Part shown: piece after piece, positions 16,148 through 63,702 of the stretch | Numbering within the stretch: position 1 is the stretch's first letter | Layout: every line of letters begins with the position of its first letter | Sequence record: OZ335964.1 | DNA from: a phage | Length of the DNA: 64,000 nt | Reading direction: 5' to 3' (one strand) | Position numbers and translations under genes: made by a program | Notes under the pieces: generated by a model | Told to the model about the DNA's origin: nothing | Seen by the model: the letters and a program-made list of their open reading frames with translations, nothing else | Databases searched by the model: none

Positions 16148-16468
16148 TTATTTATAAATTTCGACGATCTGCGCTGGAGTCAGCCCGTCTACATTAATCA
16201 GACTATCAAGCCCAAAACTACGGAAACCTTCAACTGCAATTTCATATACTGGCAAAGATGTTTCTGATTCTTTACGCGGTTTTTCAACATTCGGAACTAA
16301 CCACTTTTCGTATGTTTCAAACGGCATCAGTGCCGGATCTCTCGTAGCGATCATCTCGCGGACAGTACCATCTTTCTTAGTAAACTGCAAAGAGTGAGTA
16401 CCGACCGAAAACATTTTCTTTAGTGCTTCACGAAGTGCGATATTATCAATTTGTTCGGTCATTATCAA
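16148..16468 (-). CDS. hypothetical protein
   Basis: 106 aa ORF between 31 and cd; stop overlaps cd start. Confidence 0.5.
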   Translation of the reverse strand: MIMTEQIDNIALREALKKMFSVGTHSLQFTKKDGTVREMIATRDPALMPFETYEKWLVPNVEKPRKESETSLPVYEIAVEGFRSFGLDSLINVDGLTPAQIVEIYK

Positions 16469-33712: not shown

Positions 33713-33720
33713 TATAAATA
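33713..33720 (+). promoter_or_regulatory. T4-type late promoter
   Basis: Exact TATAAATA ~29 nt upstream of gene 34 ATG. Confidence 0.6.
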
Positions 33721-33748: not shown

Positions 33749-36700
33749 ATGGCAGATTTATTAAATCAACATTTTAAAGCCACATTTGGCTTTGATGCTG
33801 GTAACGAAAAAGTCGTTAATGTAGCACTTGCAGATAAGAACACTCTCACTGATGCCGTTAACGTCGAATTTTTCAATTACCATAACGGTATTACGCAGTA
33901 TGACACAACTCGCGGTTATGATCAATACGGTACTGCAATCTATCAAAACCGTCCTTACTATGCAAAAGAAGATATCGCAAAACCAGCCGGAGAATTTGAT
34001 CCGACTAAATGGCAAGCACTGCGTACTGATCCACGTTGGGATTACATTGCAGCGACGTCCGGCGATACTCCCTTAAAGTCCGGTGATTATATCGCGGCGG
34101 ATTGCCAATTTGCAAACTTGACTTTCTCTATGCCTAACAAACCAGCCGAGGGAGATACTATAACAGTAAAAGATATCGGTGGCAAGTGTGGCGTAAACGA
34201 ATTATCGTTCCTTAGTTCCGGTCATGAGTTCTATCATAACGGAAACGTGTATAATCGCAAGTGGTATTGCACTACCCCTTATTCTATGGTGTATTTCATC
34301 TTTGCTCGTAACCGTTGGCATGTCTATCAGACTGGAACGGAGCCGCGCGGGGTATATGCACAACCAGCGATCGATCCTATCCAGATGCAGAACGGCGATC
34401 AGATATTCCGTCGCAGTGCGTTAGGTGAAATCAGTCTCGTGTTGCCTAAATTCGCTAATAATGGTGATGTGGTTTATACCACGGATCTGGATGGTCTGAC
34501 AGCAACCAACCACGTTACGATCAAGACTCATGAAGGAGCGCCGGATCATTCAATTGGCGCGGCTGGCGTGAAAGAGATTGTTGGTAAACGTAGCGGTCAT
34601 GGTGCATTCATCTTTGATATTGCAGAAAACTTATGGCGTGTCTGGGATGGCGACCAGTCTGTTCGTTTAAATCCGATTGTATCGGATACCCGTTTATCTC
34701 CGAATAGCTATGTTGCTGTATTTGGTGACAAAGATGTTACTCTGACTCTTCCTAGCAATGTAGAAATTGGTGACCGTATTCAGGTATCTATGCAGTATAT
34801 GCACGGAAACCAGAATTGCAAAATCGTAACTGCTGACGCAGATACAAAAATTCTTATGCAAAAGAATATGTTACAATTCCCTAAACGCAGTGAATACCCA
34901 TTCAACGGCGTTAATACATGGGGCGAAGTAACAGAATTATCATTCAATGCAGAGAAAGATTATGTTCCTTATCTGGAGTTCTCTTATACAGAAGGTGATG
35001 ACGGTAAGAAACACTGGTTGATTGCACATGCTCACCCGATGGTTGAACGCGTCGATCCTAAGCGTAAAGCGCGTGTAGGTGTTATTGCACTGGCTACTCA
35101 GGAAGAAACCAATAAAAACCATGAAGATAATCCTAACGATGAAGTAGCAGTTACCCCAAAAATGCTGGCTAACAAAACCGCAACCGAAACACGACGCGGT
35201 ATTGCTCGCATTGCTACTCAGGCGGAAACTCATCAAAATACTGGTTCCAACTTCCTCGATGATGTTATTGTTACGCCTAAAAAGCTGAATAACTGCGTTG
35301 CTACCGAAGAACGACGCGGGGTACTGGAAATCGCTACCCAGAATGAAACTAACGAAGGCTTAGACGATACCCGCGCTATTACTCCTAAGAAATTAGAAGA
35401 ACGTCGCGCTAGCGAAACTCTGGCAGGGATCGCGGAAATTGTAACTAATGGCGGTAAAGCTGCAACCGTTCGCGGTCAAACTGGCACTGGCATTTATGAT
35501 ATTAATGACCATGCTAAGATTGTTACCCCGCATAACCTGAATGAAGTTAAAGCTACCGAAACGTCTCGCGGTGTGGGTTATCTGGCAACTGATGCAGAAG
35601 TGCAAGGAGCAACGGAAACAACGCCACAAGATGCATTATTCATCACTACCCGTACTTTAACTAAGCGCACAGCAACAGAAACACGCACCGGGATCGCGGA
35701 GATTGCAACTCAGGAAGAAACCAACTTAGGGCAAAGTGATAACCATATTGTTACGCCTAAAAAGCTGCATACTCGCCGTGCTACTGAAACACTTCACGGT
35801 TTGGCTGAAATTGCCACACAAGACGAGTTTGACGCAGGACGCGATGATGCTCGCATTTCTACCCCGTTGAAGATTAAAACTTTCTTTGAACGTGCACAAC
35901 GTCTGAAAGTAGATCCGACTCAAGGGCTTAATCTTGAGGGTAATTTGTGGGATGGTATCACGATTCGCGGTTTGGATGCAAATGAAACCACTAAAGGTGT
36001 TGCTAAAGTTGCTACCCAGCAATTAACCGATGAAGGTCAAGATGATACTACCATTATCACGCCGAAAAAGCTACATGCTAAAAAGGCAACAGAAGATAAA
36101 GAAGGTATTATTCGAGTTGCTACAGAAGAAGAGGCTAAAGGTGGTGATTTAGGTAATGTTGCAATCACTCCTAAAACCTTTAAACTGGTTGTTCAGGATG
36201 CAGAAGACTGGAAAGCTACCGAAGGACGACGCGGATTCCTGAAAGTATCAACCAAAGAAAACTGTTTCGTTGGTGACAATTTACAGGGTTCTACTCAAGC
36301 ACTTGAACAATACCAGCATGAAGGGATTGCCGTAACTCCACGCGGTTTAAACTATGCTCTTGATAATTTCTTACCGAAAATGGCAACCGCTCAGAATAGT
36401 TTGAAATTAGGCAACGTAGAGGCCGCTAAATGGGCGCGTAGAGACGTAGATCAGGTTATTGAGTCCAACTATACCTTTAATAAAAAAGTCACTGTAAAAG
36501 GCGAATTAGAGGGATTAAAATCTGGATCGTTTGAAACTCTTTATATAACCAAAAATTCAACAGAAGAGGCGAGTACAGGGAATCTTGTTTTAGGTCTTCG
36601 TGGACAGAATGGTCATACCGGAATTGCACTGCATGGAACAACCGGAGACGTTGAGAACTCATGGGCTATGCTGGTAGGTGGCACTGGAACGAATCAAATC

Positions 36701-38816: not shown

Positions 38817-38824
38817 TATAAATA
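38817..38824 (+). promoter_or_regulatory. T4-type late promoter
   Basis: Exact TATAAATA ~34 nt upstream of gene 36 ATG. Confidence 0.6.
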
Positions 38825-46920: not shown

Positions 46921-47133
46921 TTAATTTTTACCCGCTCGTGCATTAATACGCATTTTCTGCATAGCCATGATCTGGGTTATTGCTTCTTCTTTACGTTCTT
47001 GTGTGATAACGTGACCAGATTCCGCAAACTCTCCAGCGACTTCTTCCACGATCTCGCGAATTTGAGAACGTCCAAAGATGCGGTTTCCTTCGTAGCTCAT
47101 AAACTCGGTTACTACTTGCTCGATAGATTTCAT
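46921..47133 (-). CDS. hypothetical small protein
   Basis: 70 aa from MKSIEQVV (RBS GGAGAATCAC); track ORF has 15-codon extension. Confidence 0.45.
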   Translation of the reverse strand: MKSIEQVVTEFMSYEGNRIFGRSQIREIVEEVAGEFAESGHVITQERKEEAITQIMAMQKMRINARAGKN

Positions 47134-47172
47134 GTGATTCTCCTTTCGTTTGGTATGGGAGTATGTTACTAC

Positions 47173-47201
47173 TCCCATTTCTTTACGTCAACAACTATTT
47201 T
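47173..47201 (-). promoter_or_regulatory. early promoter cassette
   Basis: TTGACG - 17 nt - TAACAT; GGGAGTAGTAACATACTCCC hairpin spans -10. Confidence 0.4.
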
Positions 47202-47425
47202 AAATTATTTTCGACCTTCATCCATTCCGCGTATTCTTGCGCGGCTACTTTCGGATTTAGTCCGTCTTCGTACATTGCTTCAAGTAATTCTTCGTCGGTG
47301 GGCTTATACCCTAGATAAGCCTCCACCTGATTTTTCCAAATTTTATACCAGTTCATATTATCACCAGTCAAGAGCGCGTGTCTCTGCGTCTTCCCATGCT
47401 TGGTCCATAACAGCCTTGAAAACAT
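47195..47425 (-). CDS. hypothetical small protein
   Basis: 76 aa ORF; an internal start at MNWYKIW (47356) would remove the 65-nt overlap with the upstream gene. Confidence 0.4.
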   Translation of the reverse strand: MFSRLLWTKHGKTQRHALLTGDNMNWYKIWKNQVEAYLGYKPTDEELLEAMYEDGLNPKVAAQEYAEWMKVENNLK

Positions 47426-47633
47426 ATTCTAAAGTATCATCTTTAGAGAATCCGAAGACCTTAGACGGAATATCTTCAATTGCTACTCCCGCAACTTCTG
47501 CATTACGCGCTTGGCAATAATGCAACTCTAAGTTATCGAGATAGCGACCGCCTAATTTCTCCATATCATCCCAGCATTTCCAGTAACCTACTTTATCTGC
47601 AATTGCCAACACTTTGCTGTTTTTGTTGCTCAT
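47361..47633 (-). CDS. hypothetical protein
   Basis: 90 aa from MSNKNSKVL (RBS GGAGAATCAAAG); track ORF's extension overlaps the promoter. Confidence 0.45.
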   Translation of the reverse strand: MSNKNSKVLAIADKVGYWKCWDDMEKLGGRYLDNLELHYCQARNAEVAGVAIEDIPSKVFGFSKDDTLEYVFKAVMDQAWEDAETRALDW

Positions 47634-62206: not shown

Positions 62207-62210
62207 AATA

Positions 62211-62240
62211 AAAAAGCCTCCAATCTTTCGACGGGAGGCA
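62211..62240. other. stem-loop in leader of Mod-like gene
   Basis: GCCTCC...GGAGGC inverted repeat flanked by A-run and T-rich sequence. Confidence 0.35.
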
Positions 62241-62287
62241 TAATAAAACCATTATAGAGTAGTGTCAATCACAAAGTGTATGTGATC

Positions 62288-62295
62288 TATAAATA
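62288..62295 (+). promoter_or_regulatory. T4-type late promoter
   Basis: Exact TATAAATA ~30 nt upstream of the + strand HNH gene ATG. Confidence 0.5.
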
Positions 62296-62324
62296 AGTTT
62301 GCTAGAACTAAAGGAGACCACAAA

Positions 62325-63254
62325 ATGAACTATAAACGTATTTATGATAACCTGATTGAACGTGCTAAGACTAGAACTATCGACGGATATACAGAAAAGC
62401 ATCACATCATACCACGTTGTATGAATGGAAGCGATGATGATAGCAATCTAGTTAGACTCACCCCAGAGGAACATTACATTGCTCACCTTCTGTTAGTTAA
62501 GATTTACCCAGATAACAGTAAATTGGTTTATGCTGCAAATATGATGTGCGTTTCTTCTGATTCACATAATGGAGAAAGACAGTCAAATAAACGTCATGGT
62601 TGGTTGCGTAGAAAAATGGCAGAGGCACATAGTAAAAGAATCCGCGATAGAATGGAGAACGATCCTGAATATAGAGCTAAGGTTTCGGAATGGGCTAGAA
62701 AAATGGGTAAAGCCATGAAAGGAGTTAAGCGAGGACCGGAATTTAGCAGAAAGTTGGCAGAAAGAAACAGAAATACCGTGATGAAAGAAGAAACTAAACG
62801 TAAAATCGGGGAAGCCAACAAAGGAAGGAAACGTACAGAAGAATATAAAAGAAAACATAGTGAGCGGTATAAGGGTGAAGGTAATCCGATGTATGGTAAA
62901 CGAGGAAAGGAACATCCGGCATATGGTACTAAACCGTGGAACAACCAAACATCATTTGTTGAGCAGAAAGCATGGTGGCGGTTCGCTGGCATGTTCTATG
63001 ACTGGTATCAGATGGATATTGACCGTGGGAAACATAAACGCCACGGTCATAAAAGAATGCTTGATGAATTGGGTTTTGTTGGTTGGCGAGAAAAAGAGCC
63101 AGCCGCAGCAAGACGATCAATTGAAATGTTTGCTAAAGGCTGGAATCCTTATGAAGACCAAGAATGGTTAGATTATATTAATACCCGCTTTCCAAACGAC
63201 GATAGTTTTCCGCGTTCTTCAACATATACAAAACAAACAAATCCTTTGCAGTAA
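62325..63254 (+). CDS. HNH homing endonuclease with NUMOD3-like repeats
   Basis: 309 aa; EKHHIIPRCMNGSDDDSNLVRLTPEEHYIAH (HNH) and repeated basic HSKRIRDRM / KRKIGEANKGRK / HSERYKGEGNPMYGKRGKEH motifs; only + strand gene in this block. Confidence 0.7.
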   Translation: MNYKRIYDNLIERAKTRTIDGYTEKHHIIPRCMNGSDDDSNLVRLTPEEHYIAHLLLVKIYPDNSKLVYAANMMCVSSDSHNGERQSNKRHGWLRRKMAEAHSKRIRDRMENDPEYRAKVSEWARKMGKAMKGVKRGPEFSRKLAERNRNTVMKEETKRKIGEANKGRKRTEEYKRKHSERYKGEGNPMYGKRGKEHPAYGTKPWNNQTSFVEQKAWWRFAGMFYDWYQMDIDRGKHKRHGHKRMLDELGFVGWREKEPAAARRSIEMFAKGWNPYEDQEWLDYINTRFPNDDSFPRSSTYTKQTNPLQ

Positions 63255-63702
63255 GACCTAATGCTAGGAATTTACACATAATAAAATGGAGTTGGTCCAC
63301 CGCCTCTAGGTATGTTTCGAGACGATCCGCCTCTGGCAAATCACTAAAGAGGCGGTTTCGTGCTTCCATGTGATTTGCTTTCCAGTGTTTCCATACCGCG
63401 CTCGCGTCCTTCCCGTTAGACATTCCACCTAATGCAGTATACAATTCTCGTGTTTCGTCGTCAAGAGCATTATCATTCGCTCGAATAAAATCTAAAATTT
63501 CTCCACACGTTTTCAATTCGTCAATTTTTGCTACCCACGGACGGTCCTTAGACACCTGATCCTGTAACGCTTTTTGCATATTCATCATGTGTTGGAACGG
63601 GTTATCACCGTTGGCGATGATTTCTTTATATTTTTCTTCTGCAAAATTCAGAGTTTCCGCATTTACTAAGTGTGCACAAGAATTAAATTCTGACATATTC
63701 AC
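63178..63702 (-). CDS. 56: gp56-like dCTP pyrophosphatase (tentative)
   Basis: 174 aa; ASAVWKHWKA and C-terminal LKNAENYRRLESGY resemble what I recall of T4 gp56; position after mod genes; 3' end overlaps HNH gene convergently. Confidence 0.45.
   Translation of the reverse strand: MNMSEFNSCAHLVNAETLNFAEEKYKEIIANGDNPFQHMMNMQKALQDQVSKDRPWVAKIDELKTCGEILDFIRANDNALDDETRELYTALGGMSNGKDASAVWKHWKANHMEARNRLFSDLPEADRLETYLEAVDQLHFIMCKFLALGLTAKDLFVLYMLKNAENYRRLESGY

Follow-up and report, generated by a model that had tools for sequence, protein, structure and literature searches.

The DNA under study, referred to as the window, is a 64,000-nucleotide (nt) stretch of a phage (sequence record OZ335964.1; one strand, 5' to 3') that was assigned to Krischvirus, the RB49/JSE-like coliphages. 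The open reading frame (ORF) at 62325-63254 on its plus strand, which runs convergently into gene 56, is probably a late-expressed, free-standing homing endonuclease gene (HEG) of the HNH + NUMOD3 type that has gene 56 as its target and moves together with a foreign copy of that gene, analogous to T4 SegF. The element is a known kind of phage mobile element, involves no new mechanism, and was already annotated in phages JSE and G37-3. Genomes with and without the gene are denoted HEG+ and HEG-, respectively. The features that carry the argument are the following.

62269-63673, not assigned to a strand: mobile cassette consisting of the late promoter, the HEG and all of gene 56 except its first 23 nt, delimited by the breaks in identity with RB49 and GEC-3S
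62325-63254, plus strand: free-standing HNH + NUMOD3 HEG, 309 amino acids (aa), ATG start, assigned from Pfam, PHROG, GenBank annotations and the ratio of nonsynonymous (dN) to synonymous (dS) substitution rates
63178-63696, minus strand: gene 56 of the dCTPase/dUTPase family, foreign HEG-linked allele, 172 aa (PHROG 173, E 6.9e-33)
62288-62295, plus strand: putative T4-type late promoter box TATAAATA, an exact match, with the same box at homologous loci
63178-63254, both strands: 77-nt convergent overlap of the two coding regions, with the gp56 frame fully conserved and the endonuclease frame not

The major evidence for mobility was the distribution of the gene among close relatives. Only 3 of the 59 matching Krischvirus records contained the HEG, namely the two records of JSE and that of G37-3, which matched the region over its full length at 94.3% (both JSE records) and 97.0% (G37-3). 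The other 56 records matched the flanks at ~98% and lacked ~0.9 kb, in keeping with the initial annotation, which had taken the gene for a homing-endonuclease insertion. The same presence/absence polymorphism at one locus among near-identical genomes was observed in Slopekvirus, with 22 HEG+ and ~90 HEG- records. In both RB49 and GEC-3S, modB directly follows gene 56, and in RB49 just 8-9 nt separate the gene 56 stop from the modB promoter. The HEG lies within this interval and is therefore intergenic, outside any intron or intein. On the left, identity with RB49 and GEC-3S (flanks of ~98%) ended after 62268, the upstream edge of the modB -35 element TTGACA, and on the right it was found again over the initial 23 nt of gene 56 (63674-63696), so that the cassette takes the place of ~0.5 kb in the HEG- genomes. 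At the cassette, no insertion scars, target-site duplications or flanking repeats were found, only trivial short repeats. Seven HEGs have been counted in JSE versus two in RB49 (Petrov et al., PMC2993671, Table 5), and the endonuclease gene described here is consistent with being one of the extra HEGs of JSE.

The second line of evidence concerned gene 56 itself. The gene was read from the ATG used by the GenBank annotators, the mechanical ORF starting two codons earlier at a GTG (63702). Its homology to T4-type gp56 extends over the full length, as also seen from full-length tblastn matches in 1399 phage records, while the Pfam dUTPase_2 model scored just below its cut-off (20.4 versus 22.9). 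From nt 24 to the stop the gene was only 58% identical to the RB49 allele at the nucleotide level and 57% at the amino acid level, and this divergence from the HEG- allele was even along the gene, with 12-24 of 30 positions identical per 30-nt bin. Among 1409 phage records with a gp56 homologue, the window-type allele occurred only in the 3 HEG+ records, a perfect linkage. In a distance tree it fell beside alleles P0002 and P0003 (64-66%), which come from other T4-like contigs, and apart from the RB49 clade (56%); no HEG was found at this site in the contigs bearing either of these alleles. The initial annotation had proposed that the insertion regenerated the C terminus of its neighbor. This was not supported, since the HEG- gp56 also has 172 aa and a homologous end (...LKNAENFARQERGY* against ...LKNAENYRRLESGY*, with ...GY* at the end in both classes), the whole gene after nt 23 differs, and what is new and unconstrained in the overlap belongs to the endonuclease tail rather than to gp56. 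The cassette thus carries its own foreign gene 56, and the resident gene has been replaced, not repaired.

Gene 56 was also found to vary among the HEG- Krischvirus genomes. These contain two allele classes (L023, L024 and L002), an RB49 type and a KFS-EC/Makalu type, which are 70-72% identical in nucleotides and have identical first ~30 and last ~40 nt, suggesting internal replacement. Together with the window type, this makes three deep gene 56 allele classes in ~98% identical Krischvirus backbones. In KFS-EC (MH560358, L023), an unannotated ORF at ~925-1490 on the gene 56 strand lies between the primase gene 61 and gene 56; read by eye, it resembles an HNH + AP2-type homing endonuclease (...HRIVFFLEHGYCPPVIDHIDGNPENNDPPNL...FKGVHYNSRSGKWVAQIRD...) and would be a second, unrelated HEG flanking gene 56. 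In the T4-like contigs with the closest gp56 alleles (L009 4519-6454 and L010 1443-2575), Mom-like, Tad2-like and N6/N4 methyltransferase genes lie directly 3' of gene 56.

The assignment of the ORF as an endonuclease was deduced from its domains and its conserved residues, with the following features recognized.

62388-62486, plus strand: HNH catalytic motif YTEKHHIIPRCMNGSDDDSNLVRLTPEEHYIAH, residues 22-54, from 41 homologues, a profile match to McrA and the model
62823-62900, plus strand: NUMOD3 DNA-binding motif, residues 167-192 (PF07460, 29.1 bits versus a cut-off of 20.4)
62310-62317, plus strand: Shine-Dalgarno sequence AAAGGAGA, from reading of the sequence, in a predicted late leader that is unstructured

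Residues H26, H27, N41, H50 and H54 were invariant or nearly so across the 41 homologues, giving the His...Asn...His arrangement of the HNH family. A profile of the family aligned residues 22-50 with the HNH domain of McrA (E 0.0024), and also with a group II intron maturase and Cas8-HNH. The AlphaFold model (mean pLDDT [predicted local distance difference test] 86) placed a strand-strand-helix at residues 24-60, with strands at 24-27 and 42-45 and a helix at 47-60, all at a pLDDT of ~96 or more. The NUMOD3 match had an E value of 9.5e-7, and the protein matched PHROG 655, "homing endonuclease," with an E value of 4.5e-78. A PDB sequence search with the single protein gave chance matches only, and NCBIfam had no family for either the endonuclease or gp56. 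In GenBank the same ORF is a "Homing endonuclease" in JSE (ACL77964.1; 91.6% aa identity) and a "putative HNH endonuclease" in G37-3 (QBO64613.1; 97.4%), in both cases at the same locus and with the same 77-nt overlap; the two are allelic variants of the window gene. Among the three copies (window, G37-3 and JSE), dN/dS of the HEG was 0.09-0.14 (dS 0.09-0.29), and that of gp56 was 0.01-0.02. These ratios and the invariant HNH residues point to both proteins being functional. It had been noted that the gene is the only plus-strand gene in a long minus-strand block, and this was confirmed for about 44.3-64 kb, where every further plus-strand ORF of 100 aa or more either overlaps a minus-strand gene or is nested in one. 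The one other free-looking plus-strand ORF in the block, a 173-aa ORF with a TTG start at 46999-47520, overlaps several small ATG-start minus-strand ORFs and is probably spurious.

The exact late box reported upstream of the gene was likewise confirmed, 37 nt 5' of the endonuclease ATG. The box as such was not enriched in the window (4 found versus 5.7 expected), and the promoter assignment therefore rests on position and on conservation in homologues. All three plus-strand copies in the window sit 36-41 nt upstream of plus-strand start codons, and in seven of eight clade members examined (six loci besides the window) the box precedes the start codon by 30-37 nt. The leader of the predicted late transcript was unstructured (-3.6 kcal/mol, z -0.28), and the GGAG of the Shine-Dalgarno sequence lies 8 nt 5' of the ATG. 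A late promoter for the endonuclease gene is thus plausible from these sequence features. The other three boxes, at 33713-33720 (plus), 38817-38824 (plus) and 16149-16156 (minus), lie 36-50 nt upstream of same-strand starts (the ORFs at 33749, 38858 and 16106) and are probably real late promoters as well.

Signals for the ends of transcripts and for the neighboring modB gene were also located.

63327-63355, plus strand: hairpin within gene 56, 73 nt past the endonuclease stop (-20.6 kcal/mol, z -3.4)
62210-62239, minus strand: terminator hairpin and U-run 3' of gene 56, just before the modB ATG (-15 kcal/mol, z -4.3)
62240-62268, minus strand: sigma-70-type early promoter of modB, with -35 TTGACA at 62268-62263 and -10 TATTAT at 62245-62240

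The first hairpin is annotated as a putative terminator in G37-3 and has a weak U-tract; it may, tentatively, be the 3' end of the late endonuclease transcript. The second is an annotated terminator in Makalu_003. The modB promoter matches 11 of 12 consensus positions and is an annotated promoter in GEC-3S. Over 62207-62270, which covers this promoter, the window and G37-3 have the RB49 sequence, while JSE differs from the window at 9 of 64 positions, including ATAGAGTAGT to GATTGAGTTT between the -35 and -10 elements. An autorepressor operator of the kind known for I-TevI was considered and rejected, as the best match of 62262-62330 to the gene 56 of RB49 and KFS-EC was 13 of 20, which did not exceed that of shuffled sequences.

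Homologues of the endonuclease provided further examples of the same arrangement. The nearest (38-44% identical) were found in Slopekvirus (phT4A, KMI9 and Prick1), in the Acinetobacter phages AB-Navy and Porter, and in the metagenomic contigs L014/L015, L016 and L018, and in every case the gene faced a gp56 homologue in convergent orientation (E 1e-44 to 1e-69). At least five T4-like lineages besides that of the window thus have a homologue at the 3' end of gene 56, the two genes being anywhere from 25 nt apart to overlapping by 7 nt. Homologues of lower identity (36-37%) occupy other loci, such as the nrdA-nrdB interval in Limestonevirus. In a comparison of three HEG+ and four HEG- Slopekvirus genomes, the fixed differences in gene 56 (537 nt), 28 in number, were all located at 412-536, within the last 126 nt, and 18 of them fell within the 43-nt block 412-454. 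This footprint is the pattern that would be expected for a target/immunity region together with a co-conversion tract. A pattern consistent with co-conversion was seen in both genera, the linked segment being the whole of gene 56 in Krischvirus and its last 126 nt in Slopekvirus.

Several further observations were made on these relatives. In Slopekvirus, a 61-aa membrane-like ORF 3' of gene 56 has its first 6 codons replaced by the HEG insertion (L005 2101-2330 and L021 898-1119 versus L008 1098-1283), and in HEG+ genomes this ORF gets a longer alternative N terminus (MYNLLYYIYSIDQWHFLM...) from the inserted DNA, so the terminus of a neighbor really is regenerated there. The TATAAATA box in Slopekvirus (L005 ~2283-2290) lies ~210 nt upstream of the annotated endonuclease ATG, with a small plus-strand ORF annotated between them (KMI9, L006 2317-2514); the start or leader of the Slopekvirus endonuclease may be misannotated or may differ from those of other clade members. 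The Acinetobacter-type relatives (L007 2501-3439, L011, L016, L017 and L018) have a second C-terminal "GWNPY.D.E...W" module, ending ...GWNPYTDDEYKNWMQKWHS, which is probably a duplicated DNA-binding unit.

From these data, the following sequence of events is proposed. Late transcription of the HEG would start at its own TATAAATA promoter, in the orientation opposite to that of the early genes. In a mixed infection, the enzyme would cut the gene 56 region of a coinfecting HEG- phage, and the break would be repaired by recombination with the HEG+ genome as template, which would copy the HEG into the recipient (intronless homing). Since the linked gene 56, at 58% identity, would be too diverged to pair, homology for repair would be available only outside 62269-63673, and consequently the HEG and gene 56 would move as one 1.4-kb cassette. 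The diverged gene 56 allele presumably does not contain the cleavage site. Early transcripts of genes 61 and 56 should run ~1 kb antisense through the HEG to the hairpin and U-run at 62210-62239, and the late transcript may stop at the hairpin within gene 56.

The element was compared with known free-standing endonucleases of T4-like phages. The gene 56 alleles of T4 and T2 are close relatives, whereas the allele linked to the window HEG is only 58% identical to the resident one. SegF of T4 is a free-standing endonuclease encoded between soc and 56; its target is gene 56, and it excludes the T2 gene 56 by gene conversion (PMC2988022, Table 1; PMC2330249). The window HEG resembles it in being free-standing, immediately 3' of gene 56 and polymorphic among close relatives, and in being linked to replacement of the neighboring gene 56 allele, a replacement that for SegF is described as co-conversion or marker exclusion (PMC2988022, Table 1; PMC2330249). 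By this analogy, the element in the window would work as SegF does. It is not a member of the SegF (GIY-YIG) family, since its protein has an HNH motif and its Pfam and PHROG matches are to HNH/NUMOD3 only. A further difference is that segF is listed among the promoter-less cassettes that use upstream T4 promoters and a polycistronic message (PMC2988022); segF is co-directional with its neighbors, unlike the window HEG, which is convergent and has its own late box. In its described features the element can also be likened to MobE and other mob-type HNH free-standing endonucleases, which share with it the HNH family and an intergenic position beside a conserved nucleotide-metabolism gene. A further similarity is the location of its distant Limestonevirus homologues between nrdA and nrdB; the target locus is different. 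The Aeh1 mobE is described among the endonuclease genes whose late promoter is positioned to let late transcripts avoid an inhibitory RNA structure, while the T4 mobE relies on promoters upstream of nrdA (PMC2988022). T4 segD is the sole T4 free-standing HEG oriented against its neighbors; no promoter could be identified for it, and it is believed to be transcribed at very low levels (PMC2988022). The window HEG is likewise antisense to its flanking genes but, unlike segD, has the conserved TATAAATA and a good Shine-Dalgarno sequence.

The 77-nt overlap, which the initial annotation had described correctly, was analyzed in both frames with respect to the 21-residue end of the endonuclease.

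63189-63251, plus strand: lineage-specific 21-residue endonuclease tail FPNDDSFPRSSTYTKQTNPLQ, antisense to gene 56, from the homologue alignment, the sequence changes and pLDDT

The window, G37-3 and JSE all have the stop codon of each gene, so neither was miscalled. Within the overlap, gp56 is identical in the three HEG+ phages, all 4-5 nucleotide differences being silent for gp56 while altering the endonuclease tail (K303R, N306D, P307L and L308S); the constrained end is that of gp56 and not that of the endonuclease. The Slopekvirus homologue stops at the residue aligned to R288, leaving residues 289-309 without a counterpart there, and other relatives have different C-terminal extensions in this place. 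The tail was predicted to be disordered, with a mean pLDDT of 57 for residues 291-300 and values of <50 for 298-309. At 20% of 55 minus-strand gene ends in the window, the antisense strand stayed open in the same frame for 25 codons or more; such runs are not rare. On reading the sequences, the gene 56 stop falls within two codons of the same aligned endonuclease position in Krischvirus and Slopekvirus, which indicates that the convergent geometry is ancestral. The long overlap is then due to there being no stop codon at the end of the homologous core in the Krischvirus lineage, the frame continuing 21 codons more into the gene 56 antisense strand. Comparison of the sequences thus indicates that the overlap is a by-product of incidental read-through. 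The alternative that the overlap is functional, with the tail needed by the enzyme or with the late plus-strand transcript acting as an antisense RNA that shuts off gene 56 late, could draw on its retention in all three HEG+ Krischviruses, on the stable plus-strand hairpin at 63327-63355 that could terminate such a transcript, and on the fact that every clade member is convergent with gene 56, so that some antisense transcription is general. It is nonetheless improbable given a tail that is absent in Slopekvirus, replaced by other extensions in further relatives and predicted to be disordered, the nucleotide changes that are silent for gp56 and alter the tail, the frequency of such runs by chance, and a clade spacing that varies from a 25-nt gap to a 77-nt overlap.

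The initial annotation had instead favored a recent insertion of the HEG into the 3' end of the resident gene 56, with the inserted DNA regenerating the gp56 C terminus. The overlap of the two ORFs and the absence of the HEG from most relatives agree with this, yet we regard it as highly improbable. The divergence from the HEG- allele is uniform over gene 56 and not confined to its 3' end; gp56 length and the terminal ...NAEN..R.E.GY* are kept in both classes; and no scar or flanking repeat was seen. Nor is the cassette recent. Among the three HEG+ phages, gene 56 had a dS of 0.24-0.57 compared with 0.06-0.12 for the backbone gene modB, which showed no amino acid changes (so that dN/dS is not applicable). 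The window and G37-3 were near-identical over 62300-62999 and ~9% different over 63000-63499, while G37-3 and JSE showed the opposite pattern, making the three cassettes mosaics of one another. The dS and dN/dS values and the blocky differences were taken to mean that the cassette is old, recombining and functional. An inactive or domesticated endonuclease, carried along as a passenger, could also be supposed. Ordinary recombination, together with selection on the foreign gene 56, would then have spread or maintained the cassette, gene 56 being, for example, a dCTPase/dUTPase variant that escapes a host defense or suits a different nucleotide pool. The low frequency of the cassette, the existence of three deep Krischvirus gene 56 classes, with class B free of any HEG in Makalu_003, and the very strong purifying selection on the gp56 allele would all fit. 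This too is considered unlikely when set against the dN/dS of the endonuclease and its intact catalytic residues, the late promoter conserved across the clade, the perfect linkage of HEG and allele, and the Slopekvirus HEG, which is present in some genomes only, has no foreign gene 56 with it and leaves a footprint resembling a conversion tract.

A number of observations do weigh against a late-expressed homing endonuclease that travels with its gene 56. The HEG is rare (~5% of sampled Krischvirus genomes), unlike a freely sweeping element, although this rarity is compatible with resistant alleles or a fitness cost. The Pfam HNH model (PF01844) scored below its gathering threshold (16.5 versus 21.4 bits, E 0.0094), a shortfall that goes with a short model and a divergent family, and fold searches with the whole endonuclease model gave no significant match. 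No donor lineage with both this HEG and this gp56 allele was found, the next HEG being 44% and the next gp56 66% identical, and no endonuclease more than 44% identical was found outside its own cluster among 5.8 billion proteins; the donor lineage of the cassette is unsampled. Finally, between the window and G37-3 the dS of gene 56 was 0.44 versus 0.09 for the HEG. With gene 56 more diverged than the HEG within the same cassette, simple co-inheritance is an oversimplification.

What is new here is that a complete, foreign and strongly constrained gene 56 is carried, a clear natural case of an HEG moving a host-type metabolic gene between phage lineages, and that, across several genera, the closest relatives of the endonuclease keep to the 3' end of gene 56 and have the late promoter in common. 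The clade offers defined enzymes together with natural target and immune alleles for studying the evolution of HNH specificity. Phages of this genus, JSE and GEC-3S among them, have been investigated for possible therapeutic use (PMC3528706), and cassette-bearing strains could overtransmit this locus in mixed infections or cocktails. More broadly, and at somewhat less than even odds in our estimation, gene 56 may be a long-standing contested site for HEGs in T4-like phages, with the HNH + NUMOD3 clade specialized, in at least five or six lineages, on its 3' end and with the foreign gene 56 of Krischvirus serving as "immunity cargo." The contested-site interpretation, offered tentatively, also draws on the HNH + AP2-like HEG at the 5' end of gene 56 in KFS-EC and on T4 SegF. 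If true, it would explain the three Krischvirus gene 56 classes, 58-72% identical in nucleotides, in ~98% identical backbones, and immunity cargo would mean that a gene of an essential pathway is swapped between phage lineages as part of a mobile element.

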